The position numbers and the translations under genes are program-made. From the sequence record OM386663.1: a stretch of 64,000 nt of DNA; one strand, 5' to 3'. The notes under the pieces were generated by a model. The model was not told where the DNA came from, did not search any database, and worked only from the letters and a program-made list of their open reading frames with translations. This stretch comes from Escherichia phage vB_EcoM_ESCO49. Numbering within the stretch: the first letter of the stretch is position 1; every line of letters starts with the position of its first letter. Positions 2,526 through 8,461 of the stretch are shown here, piece after piece.

Positions 2526-2601
2526 TGGAGAATCCGAAGGGACTTGAACCCTTATAAACCTGTTTTGCAGACAGGCACATATCCATTTCTGTCACGGATT
2601 C
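2526..2601 (-). tRNA. tRNA-Cys (anticodon GCA)
   Basis: CCA encoded; perfect 7-bp acceptor (2530-2536 with 2595-2601); T-arm AAGGG/ACTTGAA/CCCTT; anticodon stem CCTGT/ACAGG, loop reads CUGCAAA. Confidence 0.75.
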
Positions 2602-2606
2602 GAAAT

Positions 2607-2697
2607 TGGGGGAAGATACCAGACTTGAACTGGTACACCGATTTCTCAGCTACTGGCAGTTTAGCAAACTGCTCCCTTACCTTTAGGGTTAATCTTC
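2607..2697 (-). tRNA. tRNA-Ser (anticodon GCU), type II
   Basis: Perfect acceptor (2611-2617 with 2691-2697); T-arm ACCAG/ACTTGAA/CTGGT; 21-nt variable arm; anticodon loop UUGCUAA. Confidence 0.7.
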
Positions 2698-2699
2698 CA

Positions 2700-3434
2700 T
2701 TATCTCTGTAATGCGCTCTTCATTTCTGGTGTTGCAATAGTATCAATCACACCAGTTTTACAAGCATCATCAAACCAGTCTGGTAAGATACCTGCTAAGA
2801 ACCCATTGATATTCGTTTTAAGGTACTCTGCAATAAGGGCAGCTTCTTCTTCAATCATCTGCACAACTTCATCTGCATAAGCTGTAATCTTTGAGATACC
2901 TTCATTAATCTTACTAACAGCCTGATTAGCTAAATCAGAAACAGTCTCAAGACCCTTATCAATAGCGTCTTGTAAGTCACTTAACACACCATTAACACTG
3001 TCTAGTGTGCTGTTAATCATGTCAATAGCTTGCTGACCATACTCTGTAGCAACACCCATAATACCACTAAATGGTGTACAACCAACTTGTTCTCCTGCTG
3101 CACCCATAACATTGGAGTATCCCTTTGCTACCTGCATACGTGATGAAAACTCATCAATAGACTTTTGACCGTAGTCTGTTAGGGTCTTAGTAGTTGCTGT
3201 AGTGCTTGTAAGGCTTGTTGTAAAGCTGTTTAGAAGGACTGTTGTGAGTCCAGCAGCAACAAGCTTCTCCTTCATTGTAGGGTCTGTTACAGAGCTAATA
3301 GAGCTTACAAGTGATGTAGAGGCAGCTACGGTTCCACCGAGAACTGCTGCACCAGTAATAAGTGGGTTAGAAAACCCTCTACCGGTTTTTAAGAGATTAA
3401 AAATCTCCTTACCTTGTTCTGTCATCTCTTTCAT
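2700..3434 (-). CDS. hypothetical protein (Ala/Ser/Thr/Gly-rich, about 244 aa)
   Basis: Track ORF 2700..3482 trimmed to the ATG at 3434..3432 because the upstream part overlaps a tRNA; low-complexity N-terminal half, helical C-terminal half. Confidence 0.4.
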   Translation of the reverse strand: MKEMTEQGKEIFNLLKTGRGFSNPLITGAAVLGGTVAASTSLVSSISSVTDPTMKEKLVAAGLTTVLLNSFTTSLTSTTATTKTLTDYGQKSIDEFSSRMQVAKGYSNVMGAAGEQVGCTPFSGIMGVATEYGQQAIDMINSTLDSVNGVLSDLQDAIDKGLETVSDLANQAVSKINEGISKITAYADEVVQMIEEEAALIAEYLKTNINGFLAGILPDWFDDACKTGVIDTIATPEMKSALQR

Positions 3435-3450
3435 TAAGCACCTTTGAAAT

Positions 3451-3521
3451 TGGTACTCCATATCGGATTCGAACCGATACATAACACAGATTTTAAGTCT
3501 GGCCTCTCTGCCAATTGGAGT
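3451..3521 (-). tRNA. compact tRNA, anticodon UAA (Leu by anticodon; atypical)
   Basis: CCA encoded; T-arm ATCGG/ATTCGAA/CCGAT; 6 of 7 acceptor pairs; short D-arm; 4-bp anticodon stem, loop CUUAAAA. Fold is non-canonical, so isotype is uncertain. Confidence 0.45.
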
Positions 3522-3531
3522 AATGGAGCAT

Positions 3532-3607
3532 TGGCTGGGGATGTTGGAATTGAACCAACTTCTTCGATTTCAAAGACCGAGGTTTTAACCTTGTAAACTA
3601 ATCCCCT
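3532..3607 (-). tRNA. tRNA-Gln (anticodon UUG)
   Basis: CCA encoded; T-arm GTTGG/AATTGAA/CCAAC; acceptor 3536-3542 with 3601-3607 (1:72 unpaired); anticodon loop CUUUGAA. Confidence 0.6.
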
Positions 3608-3615
3608 TTAAATCT

Positions 3616-4173
3616 TTACTTTCTCAGTGGATGAATAAAGAATGCCAACATAACTCTTTCCCTTGAGAATGCTCTTTCTTCTGGGACAACACTTTTTAGT
3701 TTCCATCCAATATAAATTCTCCAGTAAAACTGTTTACCAAAGATTTTAATTGATGGGATAAAAGCGAATAATCCCCAAGCATTGCTATTCCACATTAGGA
3801 GATAACCAGTCTGATTATCTTCAGGGTCAGAACTTACGCTGATATTACCTTTCCACTTAGTAACATCTTTTACATCTCTTCCTAATACATGGTAAGAGAA
3901 GTTATAAGCTTTGTTTCTCCAGAGCCATCCAACTCTCTGCATGTAGACACCCAGCTTACCAATCTTTCTAATCTTAGCCCATCTTTTAACGTGGCCTTCA
4001 TCACCATCAATCGGGTTGTCATAGGTCTCCATCCATCTGAATCCAAAAGGTAGATGCCCTTTCTTCTCACTGTAGAATGGAACCACGAAAGGTGCTAAGA
4101 TGACTGCTAGGGTTGCTGCAAATGGTTCTAGTAAAGCTAGGAAAATCCATGAAGCATACTTCAAATATCTCAT
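3616..4173 (-). CDS. hypothetical membrane protein embedded in the tRNA cluster
   Basis: 185-aa ORF with a hydrophobic N-terminal segment (WIFLALLEPFAATLAVILAPFVVPF); fills the gap between tRNAs without overlapping them. Confidence 0.35.
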   Translation of the reverse strand: MRYLKYASWIFLALLEPFAATLAVILAPFVVPFYSEKKGHLPFGFRWMETYDNPIDGDEGHVKRWAKIRKIGKLGVYMQRVGWLWRNKAYNFSYHVLGRDVKDVTKWKGNISVSSDPEDNQTGYLLMWNSNAWGLFAFIPSIKIFGKQFYWRIYIGWKLKSVVPEERAFSRERVMLAFFIHPLRK

Positions 4174-4192
4174 CTAAATAGCCTCTTAAAAT

Positions 4193-4270
4193 TGGTGTTC
4201 CAAGACGGATTCGAACCGTCACTAATACAAGGTTTGAGCTTGCATCCTCTGCCAATTGGGATACTGGAAC
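4193..4270 (-). tRNA. tRNA with anticodon CAA (Leu by anticodon; short variable arm)
   Basis: CCA encoded; T-arm GACGG/ATTCGAA/CCGTC; acceptor 4197-4203 with 4264-4270 (one G-U); anticodon stem 5 bp including G-U, loop CUCAAAC. Confidence 0.55.
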
Positions 4271-4271
4271 A

Positions 4272-4346
4272 TGGTACTCACTAAAGGACTTGAACCTTTT
4301 TCTTCATCTTGTAAGGGTGATGTTTTACCATATAAACTAAGCGAGT
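4272..4346 (-). tRNA. tRNA-Val (anticodon UAC)
   Basis: CCA encoded; T-arm AAAGG/ACTTGAA/CCTTT; acceptor with one mismatch; anticodon loop CUUACAA. Confidence 0.6.
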
Positions 4347-4441
4347 GTGAAAGAGGTCTGAAGTTGTGCCGCTAACTCAACTCCGTGGAATTTGTTACGG
4401 TCTTCAGTTGACACCAGCGGTCTTTCACTTGACCTCTGAAT

Positions 4442-4518
4442 TGGTGCTGCTCACAGGACTCGAACCTGCATTTCCATCCTTACAAGGGATGTGTAATAGC
4501 CAATTATACGAAAGCAGC
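4442..4518 (-). tRNA. tRNA-Thr (anticodon UGU)
   Basis: CCA encoded; T-loop ACTCGAA; perfect anticodon stem CATCC/GGATG, loop CUUGUAA; acceptor 6 bp plus G-U. Confidence 0.7.
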
Positions 4519-4524
4519 ATTATT

Positions 4525-4599
4525 TGGAGCATCCAGAGGGAATCGAACCCTCAACCTCAGTTTGGAAGACTGTAATTTTCCCGTTTAAACTATGGATGC
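4525..4599 (-). tRNA. tRNA-Gly (anticodon UCC)
   Basis: CCA encoded; perfect acceptor (4529-4535 with 4593-4599); T-arm GAGGG/AATCGAA/CCCTC; anticodon loop CUUCCAA. Confidence 0.7.
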
Positions 4600-4605
4600 A
4601 CTAAT

Positions 4606-4681
4606 TGGTGGAGAAGCAGGGAATTGAACCCTGTACTTAAGTTTGCAAAACTTATGTTTTAACCATGTAAACTACATCCCC
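4606..4681 (-). tRNA. tRNA-Ala (anticodon UGC)
   Basis: CCA encoded; T-arm CAGGG/AATTGAA/CCCTG; D-stem GUUU/AAAC; perfect anticodon stem UAAGU/ACUUA, loop UUUGCAA. Confidence 0.7.
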
Positions 4682-4687
4682 AATGTT

Positions 4688-4763
4688 TGGTACAGGTGGA
4701 GGGAATTGAACCCATCGTCTTACTGATTAAGAGTCAGCCGCATAACCATTTTGCTACACCTGC
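4688..4763 (-). tRNA. tRNA-Lys (anticodon CUU)
   Basis: CCA encoded; acceptor GCAGGUG/CACCUGU with G1-U72; T-loop UUCAAUU; anticodon stem GCUGA/UCAGU, loop CUCUUAA. Confidence 0.6.
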
Positions 4764-4770
4764 ATTAATT

Positions 4771-4847
4771 TGGTACACCTAGAGAGATTCGAACTCACAC
4801 TGAGCAGATTCTAAGTCTGCTGCCTCTACCAGTTGGGCTATAGGTGC
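4771..4847 (-). tRNA. tRNA with anticodon UAG (Leu by anticodon; short variable arm)
   Basis: CCA encoded; T-arm GAGAG/ATTCGAA/CTCAC; perfect anticodon stem GCAGA/TCTGC, loop CUUAGAA; canonical D-loop AACUGGUAG; 5-nt variable region. Confidence 0.6.
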
Positions 4848-5102
4848 ATTAAACCTTTTTAGAGAACTTCTAAGAACCTAAGCAACAAGGTTCCACAACA
4901 AGCCGTAATAACCTTAGAAGCCCTCTAAAAAGACCTAAAAAGGTCTTTGCATAGTCTTGTTTAATCCGGTGACTAGAACCTTTGGAGAGCTTGATATTAT
5001 CTCTTCTCCGTGACACCTGCTAGGTGCTTTATGAGTGTGTACGACAATACACGCGGGATACCAAAGCAACACCCTAATGAAGCTTGGCTTTAAATCTTAT
5101 TA

Positions 5103-5192
5103 GGCGGTAAGTAAAGGAGTCGAACCCTCACCGTATCTCTACAGTGGCAACTGTTTTCAAGACAGTTTGGCTACCATTAGCCGCTACCTACC
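5103..5192 (-). tRNA. tRNA-Ser (anticodon UGA), type II
   Basis: Acceptor GGUAGGU/ACUUACC; 3-bp D-stem; perfect anticodon stem ACUGU/ACAGU, loop CUUGAAA; about 20-nt variable arm; T-loop UUCGACU; 3' end CC without the final A. Confidence 0.65.
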
Positions 5193-5205
5193 CCTAATAA
5201 GACTT

Positions 5206-5288
5206 TGGCATGGGACGGAGGAGTTGAACCCCTTTGAAACGGTGTTGGAAGCCGTTGCTCATGCCTTAGAGTCTTAACATCGTCCCAT
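5206..5288 (-). tRNA. tRNA, probably Trp (anticodon CCA), 80 nt with enlarged D region
   Basis: CCA encoded; perfect acceptor (5210-5216 with 5282-5288); T-loop AGTTGAA; best anticodon loop UUCCAAC; D region is about 7 nt longer than canonical. Confidence 0.45.
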
Positions 5289-5431
5289 ACTATAATTCGA
5301 AGCTTACCGTATTATCTCAACACTGTAAAGCCCCTTCTCAGATTATTTACATGTTCTGGAAAACATGAGATACAGACCACCTCCCTACAGGAAGACCCGC
5401 TTAGGTCGTCTAAGTAATCTGCTAACTAAAT

Positions 5432-5518
5432 TGGTCGAGGCGGCAGGACTCGAACCCGCATACTCCACTTACTCGGTTAACGTCTGTTTAGAAGACAGAT
5501 GAGATACGCCCCGTAATT
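5432..5518 (-). tRNA. atypical tRNA-like gene (anticodon-type loop UCU; canonical D-arm not foldable)
   Basis: CCA encoded; good acceptor CGGGGCG/CGCCUCG and T-arm GCGGG/UUCGAGU/CCUGC; perfect hairpin UCUGU/ACAGA with loop CUUCUAA; only 7 nt where the D-arm should be and 23 nt between that hairpin and the T-arm. Confidence 0.4.
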
Positions 5519-5850
5519 ATCTTTAAAGACTCTCTTAGAAAGCCCTTAAAGATGCCCACCTTATTAATCATACCGTGGGCTAGTACGCCAAATTCTTTGA
5601 TGAGGGATTGGAAGACCTCACTGGTGTTTAGCCTATCAAGCTACTGCCAGAAAAACATTGTCGTTTGCATTTATTTTAAATTTGCAAAATAGACGCTACG
5701 CAACGAAAACTATTCAGAATATGTACAACAAATTTCCCCACATTGTGTTACGTCTAACGCTCATGTATTGGTGTTTGAATTATACATATTATGAAGTATT
5801 TTAGTTACTATAAAGTGGTCACATCTCAATGTCAACAACTTTATTGAAAT

Positions 5851-5926
5851 TGGTACTGGTAGGTGGAATCGAACCACCGACGTTCCCTTATCAGGGGAGT
5901 GTTATAACCTTCTTAACTATACCAGC
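5851..5926 (-). tRNA. tRNA-Ile (anticodon GAU)
   Basis: CCA encoded; perfect T-arm GGTGG/AATCGAA/CCACC; acceptor with G1-U72; anticodon loop CUGAUAA. Confidence 0.65.
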
Positions 5927-5927
5927 T

Positions 5928-6004
5928 TGGAGGTTCAGATGGGAATCGAACCCACATTCATAGGGCTTATGAGACCCTTGCATTACCTTATCTGCGACTG
6001 AACC
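5928..6004 (-). tRNA. tRNA-Met (anticodon CAU; elongator-type, or Ile2 if lysidinylated)
   Basis: CCA encoded; perfect acceptor (5932-5938 with 5998-6004); T-loop AATCGAA; anticodon stem AGGGU/GCCCU, loop CUCAUAA. Confidence 0.65.
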
Positions 6005-6008
6005 ATTT

Positions 6009-6084
6009 TGGTAGAAGTGGAGGGACTCGAACCCATCGCCTGTCAGATTAAAAGTCTGCCACATCACTATTCTGCTACACTTCC
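6009..6084 (-). tRNA. tRNA-Lys (anticodon UUU)
   Basis: CCA encoded; T-loop ACTCGAA; acceptor with G1-U72; anticodon loop CUUUUAA. Confidence 0.6.
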
Positions 6085-6278
6085 ATTAAATTATCTTTGT
6101 AGATAAGCTACCCAGACTTGCTTAAGGTCTGTAGCGATGTGACTTTTTGGGTTTAAATCTAGAATTTACCCTTTCACCCTTTGTGGTCGCATACTCACAG
6201 GTAAGCTTAATAACTTATCTACAAAGATAATTACCAGACCATTGTTTATCATCTTAACTAGATATCTCATAAAGTGTT

Positions 6279-6366
6279 TGGTGTGCCGTGTAGGAGTCGA
6301 ACCTACCGAGTCTCAATGACAAGGGATTTACAGTCCCCACCGCTACCATCTACGGGATAACGACAC
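6279..6366 (-). tRNA. tRNA-Tyr (anticodon GUA), type II
   Basis: CCA encoded; perfect T-arm GTAGG/AGTCGAA/CCTAC; 3-bp D-stem; anticodon stem GGGGA/UCCCU, loop CUGUAAA; about 15-nt variable arm. Confidence 0.6.
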
Positions 6367-6435
6367 ATCTAATTTCTATTCAGGCTAAGGACTTGCACCT
6401 TACAAATCGGTGAGTAATCGCTTCTCTCCTAAATT

Positions 6436-6512
6436 TGGCGGTTAGTCAGGGATTCGAACCCTGTGCCATTCGCTTAACAGGCGACCGCACATACCTTATG
6501 TGCTTCCTAACC
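6436..6512 (-). tRNA. tRNA-Asn (anticodon GUU)
   Basis: CCA encoded; perfect T-arm CAGGG/ATTCGAA/CCCTG; acceptor 6 bp; anticodon stem UCGC/GCGA, loop CUGUUAA. Confidence 0.6.
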
Positions 6513-6597
6513 ATGTTTAGTATTACCAGACCGTATCTTTCAATTTTTTCTGCTAAAAATTTAATAAATATTGCTGTAAACGGTCTTCTGTAAAATT

Positions 6598-6674
6598 TGG
6601 AGGCGGGTGCAGGAGTCGAACCTGCCGATACCATGCTAATGAGACATGTGAGACGCCCTTTCTCTATACCCGCA
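6598..6674 (-). tRNA. second CAU-anticodon tRNA (Met, fMet or Ile2)
   Basis: CCA encoded; perfect T-arm GCAGG/AGTCGAA/CCTGC; acceptor 6 bp with 1:72 unpaired; anticodon stem CAUGU/GCAUG, loop CUCAUUA. Confidence 0.6.
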
Positions 6675-6804
6675 ATTCTTAATGACCAGACCAAATCTCT
6701 TCTTTGTCCGATTTACCTTCAGATGAATAAGATTAAGTTTGCTGTAATTGGTCTTCTGTCAAAACTGGCGTTCCAGAAGGGATTTGTCTACTGGAACATT
6801 AATT

Positions 6805-6881
6805 TGGTCTCTGTTGGAGGACTTGAACCTCCGGCCTTACCGCCCCAAACGGAACGCTCTACCAAGCTGAGCTAAACAGAG
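6805..6881 (-). tRNA. tRNA-Pro (anticodon UGG)
   Basis: CCA encoded; perfect acceptor (6809-6815 with 6875-6881); perfect T-arm GGAGG/ACTTGAA/CCTCC; anticodon loop UUUGGGG. Confidence 0.65.
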
Positions 6882-7045
6882 ATAAACTTTTCAAACTCTA
6901 TGTAACCACTTTAACACTATTTTTTAGTGGCTGTCAAGAACTTTTTTAAAATATTTTCAGTATCTTAGAAAAGCTCTCGTTTCGTTTCTATGTAGAACAT
7001 ATTAAAGGGTATTAAACACATTGTCAATACCCTTTTTAAAACTTT

Positions 7046-8461
7046 TTACCAGATATAACGGTCAATCATTACTGCTTTGAGCATTACGCTGATTGGGTCA
7101 AACTTCTCACCACCAAGCAGAGCTTTTAAAGTAGCTGGAGAGAAACCAGATACCATTGCTACACCGTTATCCTTAACAGATACTTCGCAAGTACCATTAC
7201 GGTTTGCTAAGTACCAGAATACCAGTTGTGGCATCTCATATCCAGCTTTTTTGTACTTACTCTGAATTTCTTCAAAGTTTGTACGACCGTTAGCTCCATC
7301 AACCTGATTGAACTCCATATCGGAGAATATGATAAGCTTACTTGGCATATCTTTCTGAGTCAAGTTATTTCTTTTACCTGTCTCAAGAATGCGGTCAAAA
7401 GCTGCTTGTAAGTTAGTTGAGCCATATTCAACGTGTCGCATCACCTGACGATGACGGTTTTGTAAATCACCACTCAGTTCGATGAAGTGAGGGTTTGTTG
7501 AATAAACCATCAACTCATTCTTAAAGCAACCTGTATTACGTTCTGCTACATACAAGGCAAGTGATACACCAATATCAAGAGCAGTAATTGAACCAAAATT
7601 CACCCAAGACATTGAGCCTGAAACATCAGACATACATAAGATGTTTTCACCTTCTGCCATCCAGTTTGGTAGTGCCTTCCACTGCTCATTAGCAACATCT
7701 GCATCACCATACTTAACAGATTTAATCACATCATATGGGTAAACAGCACCAGCATTAATCTTAGCCTCACCCTTTGATAAGGACTCTATGTAGGCTTTGT
7801 AGCGTTCTCCATCCTTACGGTTAAACAGCTTTTGGTAACGTGCAGCAGCAAGTGAAGGAATCTTACTGTAGTCAATCTTACCAAACTCGTTAGCAGAGAT
7901 TTTTTGCTCAACTGTATCAGAGAGTGCAGACAACAGTGTGCGGTACTCTTTCTCACTCAAGTTGGCAAACTTGCAGAAACGTTTTACAAACTGCTTATGA
8001 CGTGGTTTGACTCGTGGTAACCACTTGGCTGCCAAACCTGCTGTTGCAGGGTCTAGTAATGCTGCTTCTAAATGCTTGAAGGTATCTGTCTCAAAACGAG
8101 TACCTACGAAGATTTTGAAGTCATCAAAACGACCAAGTTCTGCAATCTTATCCATAATGCGAAGAACCTGTGTAGGCTCTAAAACTTTATCTTCAATCGC
8201 TTGAAGCAAAACAGTTCTGAAGGCTTTACGCTCACCCATACCTTCTCGTACATCTCGCATATGAAGCAAAATACGAACTGCAACATCAACATCCTCACGC
8301 AAAGCTTTGTAGAACAGGTCTGGTAAGAATTCTACATTGCTACGGCTTGAACCAGCAGCTTTGTAAAAGTCTACAAGAGCAGACATTGATGAAGTATGGT
8401 TTACAGCACCATTTTCAGTTCGACCTGCATGAAGGTGCGCATGTTTAAATAACTCGCTCAT
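7046..8461 (-). CDS. vWA-domain protein with MIDAS motif (possibly TROVE/Ro60-like)
   Basis: 471 aa; DxSGS MIDAS motif in ILCMSDVSGSMSW and a second vWA strand LIIFSDMEF; N-terminal about 270-aa helical domain; sits next to the tRNA cluster. The TROVE assignment is recalled architecture, not an alignment. Confidence 0.5.
   Translation of the reverse strand: MSELFKHAHLHAGRTENGAVNHTSSMSALVDFYKAAGSSRSNVEFLPDLFYKALREDVDVAVRILLHMRDVREGMGERKAFRTVLLQAIEDKVLEPTQVLRIMDKIAELGRFDDFKIFVGTRFETDTFKHLEAALLDPATAGLAAKWLPRVKPRHKQFVKRFCKFANLSEKEYRTLLSALSDTVEQKISANEFGKIDYSKIPSLAAARYQKLFNRKDGERYKAYIESLSKGEAKINAGAVYPYDVIKSVKYGDADVANEQWKALPNWMAEGENILCMSDVSGSMSWVNFGSITALDIGVSLALYVAERNTGCFKNELMVYSTNPHFIELSGDLQNRHRQVMRHVEYGSTNLQAAFDRILETGKRNNLTQKDMPSKLIIFSDMEFNQVDGANGRTNFEEIQSKYKKAGYEMPQLVFWYLANRNGTCEVSVKDNGVAMVSGFSPATLKALLGGEKFDPISVMLKAVMIDRYIW

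Follow-up and report, generated by a model that had tools for sequence, protein, structure and literature searches.

We analysed a stretch of 64,000 nucleotides (nt) from Escherichia phage vB_EcoM_ESCO49 (sequence record OM386663.1), which we refer to as the window. By its sequence, this phage is FelixO1-like and belongs to the genus Felixounavirus. ARAGORN finds 19 tRNA genes on the minus strand, from 2526 to 6881, and the element described here lies in this tRNA operon, in the 194-nt spacer (6085-6278) between tRNA-Tyr (6279-6366, minus strand) and tRNA-Lys(UUU) (6009-6084, minus strand). The tRNA-Lys(UUU) gene is the invariant downstream neighbour of the element, and tRNA-Tyr is its upstream neighbour in the window only, since relatives have others in this place. 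The excerpt around the element matches 264 phage records, mostly with 90-99% identity. An initial annotation, made from the letters alone, had described the spacer as a tRNA-free interval without an open reading frame (ORF), flanked by two copies of a palindromic hairpin, and had expected a small structured RNA or a processing signal there. It named folding, covariation in related phages and an Rfam search as checks.

The predicted fold is that of a roughly 145-nt minus-strand RNA in which a long helix, P1, closes a four-way junction of the hairpins P2, P3 and P4. All of its parts are given here on the minus strand, from the 5' end of the RNA. The 5' strand of P1 (AAUUAUCUUUGUAGAUAAGUUAUU, 6209-6232) is followed by the P2 region (6174-6204), UUACCU-GUG-A-GU[AUGCG]AC-CAC-AAA-GGGUGA, which holds a recurring GAGUAUGC-type motif. 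Hairpin P3 (6149-6171), GGGU-AAAUU-CUA-GAUUU-AA-ACCC, has the palindromic apex UCUAGA. The junction between P3 and P4 (6132-6148) is mostly unpaired, and the small helices predicted within it found no comparative support. Hairpin P4 (6113-6131) consists of a CAGAC/GUCUG stem with the 9-nt loop CUUAAGCAA (6118-6126), and it adjoins the 3' strand of P1 (GGUAGCUUAUCUACAAAGAUAAUU, 6089-6112) with zero gap. In the window P1 is 24 base pairs (bp) long, and a 4-nt linker (UAAU, 6085-6088) leads from it to the 5' end of tRNA-Lys(UUU). The exact pairing of P2 is less certain than that of P1 and P4.

The two strands of P1 correspond to the left and right arms of the initial annotation. Both of its arm sequences are present, with coordinates 4-6 nt off: the left arm TTATCTTTGTAGATAAG sits at 6091-6107 and not at 6087-6105, and the right arm CTTATCTACAAAGATAA sits at 6214-6230 and not at about 6208-6225. 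As had been claimed, each arm is a small palindrome (TTATCT-TTGT-AGATAA), and the inner hairpin CAGAC-TTGCTTAAG-GTCTG is found at 6113-6131. The repeat finder places the arms at 6089-6110 and 6211-6232, as 22-nt sequences that are 95% complementary and 100 nt apart. In a window-wide scan with a 12-nt seed, this was the sole inverted repeat of at least 16 nt within 300 nt in the 64 kb, bar one AT-rich palindrome, and no extra copies of the arm beyond chance were found in the window.

Whichever strand is taken, the spacer folds better than each of 200 shuffles (minus strand, z = -3.9; plus strand, z = -4.5). Two structures had been proposed for the arms, one long-range stem enclosing the spacer or two local hairpins, and only the first of them stood. 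The minimum-energy and the centroid structures both hold the long-range stem, and the duplex of the window arms reaches -28.5 kcal/mol, compared with -3.0 to -3.4 kcal/mol for each local arm hairpin. In the corresponding region of other lineages the self-structure of the arms amounts to 0 to -0.5 kcal/mol. The local palindromic hairpins are a peculiarity of the window's allele, and because the arm palindromes are confined to this one allele, the alternative with two local hairpins is unsupported.

About 190 Felixounavirus records carry the same element with 95-99% identity. A second allele, B, is found in about 60 records (some Felixounavirus, e.g. tootiki, plus Suspvirus and Mooglevirus); its flanks are almost identical to those in the window and its interior is strongly diverged. 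Allele C comes from metagenomic relatives whose neighbouring protein (the Ro60-like protein described below) is 63% identical. The window's allele and allele B coexist inside the genus Felixounavirus between near-identical flanks (relative locus L003, 1365-1545, compared with 6085-6260 in the window), which suggests that recombination has replaced the element as a whole.

For the covariation analysis we used 18 distinct sequences from the three alleles, in which P1 and P4 make up 28 pairs and 492 pair cells. Pairing is kept in 98.2% of these cells. Changes on both sides were seen in 9 of the 28 pairs, against 0-1 when the 3' partner was slid by 1-3 columns, and in these slid controls the pairing dropped to 29-44%. 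None of 500 shuffles reached the observed covariation values. In allele B, P1 misses one base pair, and the missing bases are on both sides at the same position. The P4 stem occurs as CAGAC/GUCUG, CAAACC/GGUUUG, CAGUC/GACUG, CCGUUC/GAACGG and AAAGUC/GACUUU around a kept CUU-NNN-CAA loop, so that the inner CAGAC/GUCUG stem of the initial annotation also covaries in relatives. The RNAalifold consensus of allele B is a four-way junction of P1, P2, P3 and P4, and its P3 adds 3 further pairs with changes on both sides. In L054, A-to-G changes in P3 retain the pairs as G·U; in allele C the P3 apex is ACUAGU and the P2 helix GUG/CAC is replaced by GGG/CCC. On this comparative evidence both P1 and P4 are real helices. 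That the long-range pairing persists among relatives, through compensatory changes in both of its strands, supports the expectation of a small structured RNA or processing signal.

The same data indicate the strand. There are 50 G·U pairs among the 492 pair cells, which would become A·C on the plus strand, and a plus-strand reading lowers the pairing to 88.4% from the 98.2% of the minus strand. Since the G·U pairs fit only the minus strand, the functional molecule would be the minus-strand RNA, transcribed in the direction of the tRNAs. This strand-specific covariation bears on the idea that the repeats act in DNA and have no RNA role, whether as a cruciform or operator pair, as terminal repeats of a mobile element or as the target of a homing endonuclease. 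Each arm is palindromic in the window allele, as protein-binding sites often are, HNH endonuclease genes lie nearby in some relatives, and the region is mosaic. However, the arm sequences are unrelated between lineages while their pairing is kept, and conservation does not extend to the palindromes. Each genome has a single copy at a constant site, with no second copy in the window and no target-site duplication. Together with the strand-specific G·U changes, this leaves a role at the DNA level barely plausible.

The comparison was extended to distant loci around homologues of the neighbouring protein with 50-63% identity, including that of Yersinia phage vB_YenM_P778. Across 13 lineages, with the neighbouring protein down to 50% identity, P1 is 22-28 bp long with a sequence unrelated between lineages, encloses 78-116 nt and is joined to tRNA-Lys(UUU) by a linker of 0-11 nt. 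In the 7 of these lineages that were folded, the P1 arms form a duplex of -27.6 to -32.7 kcal/mol. The closing helix was found upstream of tRNA-Lys(UUU) in every examined lineage having that tRNA. Both the upstream neighbour (Tyr, a tRNA-like module, Asp or Ala) and the gene that follows tRNA-Lys (Met or Leu) vary among lineages, while the pairing of the element with tRNA-Lys(UUU) is constant. The interior also keeps its features. In most cases a hairpin of 5-6 bp with a 9-nt loop adjoins the P1 3' strand on its 5' side without a gap; its stem is lineage-specific, and its loop occurs as CUUAAGCAA, CUUUAGCAA, CCUUAGCAA, CUUUAGUAA, CCUAUGCAA and CUUGAACAA, with the form CUU-NNN-CAA in most of the 13 lineages. 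The GAGUAUGC-type motif recurs across lineages in the first hairpin, P2.

Three of the distant variants gave no BLAST match among isolated phage genomes, and are therefore known only from metagenome assemblies and Yersinia phage P778. A covariance model of P1 and P4, with the roughly 95-nt interior left unstructured, was run over 87 loci. It detected the close alleles strongly, L151 with E = 0.003, and L154 and L150 weakly. Beside distant Ro60-like genes (40-45% identical) it found nothing convincing, and a scan for the loop motif agreed. The family therefore appears limited to FelixO1-like phages, as judged with a model whose unstructured interior makes it a poor detector of remote members.

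The constant linkage to tRNA-Lys(UUU) and the P4 loop also allow the reading that P4 on its long helix imitates a tRNA anticodon arm. Such a decoy would soak up or block host anticodon nucleases of tRNA-Lys(UUU) and so help the phage tRNA-Lys. The P4 loop starts with CUU and ends with AA, like the tRNA-Lys anticodon loop CUUUUAA, and in the window allele the adjacent tRNA-Lys has an anticodon stem identical to the P4 stem CAGA(C). Diverged alleles suggest an arms race, and a role of phage tRNAs against tRNA-cleaving defences has been proposed (cited in PMC11482910). The likeness of the stem is lost in other lineages, however, the loop has 9 nt and not 7, and the resemblance was noticed by eye. 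We consider the decoy very unlikely.

Several other identities for the element were tried and rejected. In the Rfam search, at E up to 10, no family was found over the element in the window, in phage finno or in five diverse relatives. Neither ARAGORN nor the Rfam tRNA model detects a tRNA or pseudo-tRNA anywhere in 6085-6278, in agreement with the initial annotation, and a 7-bp acceptor stem, D- and T-loop signatures and a 7-nt anticodon loop were not found in the element. The claim that no ORF is present was effectively right: a 34-codon frame (6166-6270, minus strand) exists mechanically and is not conserved. A small protein was rejected, as the longest stop-free stretches are of at most 32 amino acids (aa), in frames and on strands that differ among alleles. 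A terminator scan found no intrinsic terminator in the element, where P1 is followed by UAAU and then by the tRNA, and no promoter-like site lies within 6085-6232. A mobile element with terminal inverted repeats was dismissed in view of the single copy, the unchanging site and arms unconserved between lineages. An operator pair and a mimic of CRISPR repeats (by eye, UUGUAGAU is like the ends of Cas12a repeats) were dropped, since only one allele has the local palindromes, and there they are weak. A common protein site, suggested by the likeness of P4 to the AGACC/GGUCU helices described below, is not kept in allele C or in distant lineages. None of the inspected GenBank records annotates the element, and in some of them it is overlaid with spurious 'hypothetical proteins'. 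There is no mention of it in the FelixO1 genome paper, and our literature searches found no description.

The tRNA operon is headed by a gene for a Ro60-like protein of 471 aa (7046-8461, minus strand), with the Pfam domains DUF2828 and DUF7788. A sequence search of the PDB with this ORF found nothing. Its AlphaFold model, built with 32 homologues, has a predicted local distance difference test (pLDDT) score of 85 and a predicted template modelling (pTM) score of 0.87. The ten best PDB matches of the model are all Ro60/TROVE proteins, matched over the full length, and include frog Ro60, Deinococcus Rsr and the Ro60 of Thermus phage phiLo. According to the model, the protein is a full-length Ro60/TROVE plus vWA fold. 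With tblastn the ORF matches a mycobacteriophage 'Ro-like RNA binding protein' (E = 8e-79), and the Ro60-like family is present in 709 isolated phage genomes. In every relative examined the gene stands at the head of the tRNA array, and 25 of 75 distant Ro60-like loci lie within 4.5 kb of tRNA genes, nearly all on the same strand. For the orthologue in Bas63, gp130, a Ro60-like fold was noted in a 2024 PhageMaP preprint, which also guessed that some of the downstream Bas63 'tRNA genes' are Y RNAs (PMC11482910).

Between this gene and the element lie two sigma-70-like promoters (6908-7027, minus strand, ahead of tRNA-Pro), with the consensus matches TTGACA-17-TAATAT and TTGACA-18-TAAAGT. They are the likely source of the transcript that would bear the element.

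We also noted tRNA-related sequences in the array. A tRNA-Glu pseudogene at about 6762-6797 (minus strand) has a 44-nt internal deletion at a CAAAT microhomology; all that is left is the acceptor stem with a portion of the T arm (GTTCCAGTAGACAAATCCCTTCTGGAACGCCA), and ARAGORN makes no call. An unannotated tRNA-like sequence at 5206-5288 (minus strand) has an 8-bp acceptor stem, a T-arm-like hairpin, a 3' GCCA and, at the anticodon position, a 5-bp stem with the 9-nt loop CUUCCAACA; it has no ARAGORN or Rfam call. The sequence at 5435-5513 (minus strand) is missed by ARAGORN, scores 33.4 bits as an Rfam tRNA and is tRNA-Arg in the annotation of phage finno. The 337-nt spacer between tRNA-Arg and tRNA-Ile gives recurrent sub-threshold matches to transfer-messenger RNA (tmRNA) and permuted tmRNA (5515-5909, minus strand), as do L003 (883-1187) and L066 (8789-8978), and it also holds a strong sigma-70-like promoter (5835-5807). 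Right after the Ro60-like gene, L151 (6591-6661), L152 (6598-6668) and L153 (6607-6681) have tRNA-like genes for which ARAGORN reports abnormal anticodon loops ('???', 4-nt or 2-nt anticodon). Under the Rfam tRNA model, the L151 gene reaches 48.6 bits.

Several spacers of the operon are closed by a conserved bulged helix. It consists of 4 bp (UUAC or UGAC), an AGA/G internal loop and a second helix of 7-8 bp, AGACC.../...GGUCU (AGACCNN/NNGGUCU), which is followed by a UACAGCAA box. The base pairs beside its conserved core covary. The window has two complete units (6513-6597 and 6675-6765, minus strand), here without a tRNA-like domain, and these are candidates for Ro60-binding, Y-RNA-like RNAs. 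In addition, an orphan 3' half of the helix (RNA ..AACAAUGGUCUGGU, 6233-6246, minus strand) abuts P1 without its 5' partner, which is deleted. Most Felixounavirus relatives have a unit ending at this site that contains, from first to last, a T arm, a closed 7-bp acceptor-like stem-loop and a D arm. When these parts are un-permuted ARAGORN accepts them as a tRNA, and Rfam gives no detection. Such permuted tRNA-like units are found in L001 (phage finno, about 1960-2075), L067 (9484-9594), L151 (8002-8115), L152 (8320-8431), L153 (8235-8346) and L154 (6041-6157). In distant lineages the bulged-helix unit sits just after tRNA-Lys(UUU), and in the relatives with these spacers that were examined a YrlA-like unit adjoins the element or its tRNA-Lys.

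In the window about 320 nt of most relatives are missing at a deletion junction (6257/6258). The deleted stretch holds tRNA-Asp, a terminator-like hairpin, one bulged-helix unit and the YrlA-like permuted module, and the element is intact despite this neighbouring deletion. Some relatives have an HNH endonuclease gene between tRNA-Asp and tRNA-Tyr.

The order of T arm, acceptor stem-loop and D arm is that of YrlA as described (PMC4201824). Because of this layout, the best Y-RNA candidates are the bulged-helix units and not the element. We nevertheless weighed whether the element itself is a Y RNA, whose terminal stem would bind the Ro60-like protein and whose loops would tether a host enzyme such as PNPase. 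It resembles Y RNAs and YrlA (PMC4201824; Yrl1/2 of phiLo, PMC12135203) in that its 5' and 3' ends pair into a long stem, which closes a structured loop with a large internal multiloop. The Ro60-fold gene, encoded on the same strand, ends 814 nt upstream of it, thus within 1 kb and well inside the 4 kb used as a criterion for Y RNAs (PMC4201824). It would likewise be processed from a longer transcript beside tRNA-like RNAs, and true YrlA-style modules stand next to it in relatives. Furthermore, phage Ro60 proteins bind adjacent Y-like RNAs (PMC12135203), and the guess about Y RNAs in Bas63 points the same way. On the other hand, the element has no Ro60-binding motif in a bulged helix (GNCGAAN0-1G in bacteria, GGUCCGA in animals, CGAA in phiLo), and it has neither a T arm/acceptor-like/D arm domain nor T- or D-loop signatures. 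Six loci gave no match to an Rfam Y-RNA or YrlA family at E up to 10. Its near-perfect duplex, 24 bp in the window and 22-28 bp among relatives, is far longer than known Ro-binding stems, and the same operon offers better candidates in the units with the bulged helix and UACAGCAA box, several of which are laid out like YrlA. The partner protein differs as well, being DUF2828/DUF7788 and not Pfam TROVE, with Ro60 recognisable by fold. Altogether, it is improbable that the element is a Y RNA.

We favour, with moderate confidence, the reading that the element is an RNA module of ~145 nt, excised from the tRNA precursor to give a functional product that is probably tied to the Ro60/Y-RNA system. 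A polycistronic precursor would start at the sigma-70-type promoters, near 7000 and 6920. P1 would serve as an excision stem of the kind found around 16S and 23S rRNA: host RNase III would cut the 22-28 bp duplex, and RNase P would make the 5' end of tRNA-Lys(UUU) by a cut 4 nt beyond P1. In this way the tRNAs on either side would be separated, and a cloverleaf-shaped RNA of roughly 120 nt would be set free, which most probably would work in a tRNA-centred module with the Ro60-like protein and the YrlA-like RNAs. We read P1 as an excision stem because such duplexes are cut by RNase III and because tRNA-Lys has to be made by an RNase P cut 4 nt past P1. In E. coli, near-perfect RNA duplexes of at least 22 bp are classical RNase III substrates, and a mostly Watson-Crick duplex of about 20 bp or more is present in all 13 lineages. 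The part of RNase III in T4 tRNA maturation and a second long stem in the same operon, both taken up below, are further precedents for such processing. We take the released RNA for a functional product, given that the shape, the size and the loop sequence of the interior are all conserved. The probable tie to the Ro60-like protein and the YrlA-like RNAs is drawn from linkage only.

The main rival of this reading accepts the stem and discards the product. It makes the element purely cis-acting, a processing or leader element whose stem serves to mark where RNase III cuts, or to protect and insulate the precursor for the maturation of tRNA-Lys(UUU) and the downstream tRNAs, with the enclosed RNA as a degraded by-product. 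The length and stability of P1 are constant and its sequence is free, and its 3' end is always found 0-11 nt from the 5' end of tRNA-Lys, as such a role would have it. RNase III takes part in T4 tRNA maturation (PMC4810235). Moreover, the operon holds a second, simpler long stem of about 26 bp around about 38 nt (about 4849-4940, minus strand), 1-2 nt before tRNA-Leu(UAG), and allele-C phages have a 23-bp helix of different sequence in the same place (L066, 9905-9994). It is possibly another RNase III-type processing stem; in Rfam it gives a weak match resembling a microRNA precursor. However, a mere cleavage stem needs no conserved interior, and here the P4 loop is kept where P1 is wholly different, P4 and P3 covary, the enclosed length stays at 78-116 nt and the diverged alleles are swapped as whole units between near-identical genomes. 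We hold a purely cis-acting element to be possible, if on the unlikely side.

A number of observations weigh against the excised, Ro60-linked RNA that we prefer. The interior of the second long stem is only about 40 nt long and shows no obvious conservation, so the long stems of this operon could be mere processing signals. A regular-expression search over five alleles showed that the GNCGAAN0-1G/CGAA motif is absent from the window's element; the sole CGAA-type match, in the Sf13 subgroup of allele B, lies in P2 and looks like chance. There is also no conserved bulge in P1. The window phage has lost the adjacent YrlA-like module and yet keeps the element, which makes a strict dependence of the element on this module unlikely. 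The Bas63 tRNA genes are mostly non-essential in laboratory hosts (PMC11482910), so a strong phenotype under standard conditions is not expected. Finally, the expression and cleavage of the RNA are, for all members, predictions from sequence.

The element can be compared with three further kinds of RNA. Like the RNase III stems of rRNA operons, T4 tRNAs and T7 early transcripts, it has a long-range duplex of about two helical turns or more, which encloses an RNA that would be released and separates the genes of a polycistronic stable-RNA transcript. It differs from them in that its cleavage is a prediction and the enclosed RNA, of only about 100 nt, has its own conserved hairpins. With a tRNA it shares the four-way junction and the place in a tRNA array, and P4 stacks on the closing helix like a T arm on an acceptor stem; the closing helix, however, has 24 bp and not 7 bp, and there are no D- or T-loop motifs and no CCA end. 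The third comparison is with the species 1 and 2 RNAs of phage T4 (rnaC/rnaD). These are non-tRNA stable RNAs of about 120-140 nt among the T4 tRNA genes, which are co-transcribed with the tRNAs and cut out by tRNA-processing enzymes. The element is likewise a non-tRNA RNA among phage tRNA genes, a likeness drawn from description only, and to our knowledge the T4 tRNA cluster contains no Ro60-like gene. The element is a new structured-RNA family in a known setting, that of non-tRNA RNAs in phage tRNA operons, beside a Ro60 system.

We give only a low probability to the wider claim that FelixO1-like phages of E. coli and Salmonella possess a new RNA-protein system made up of the Ro60-like protein, the YrlA-like RNAs, tRNA-Lys(UUU) and the element. 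If it is true, the element would be a new class of phage RNA that acts with a Ro60 particle. Its role may be to guard or repair the supply of phage tRNAs where host defences cleave tRNA, or to take over an exoribonuclease of the host. For Salmonella and E. coli, FelixO1 and Bas63 serve as tractable model phages, and their arrays have been annotated as tRNAs with empty spacers or spurious small ORFs. The vague idea in the literature that some tRNA genes may be Y RNAs is now replaced by named coordinates. The element also offers a concrete case for studying how phage tRNA operons are cut up and what their non-tRNA passengers do, a question that dates from the T4 'species 1 and 2' RNAs.

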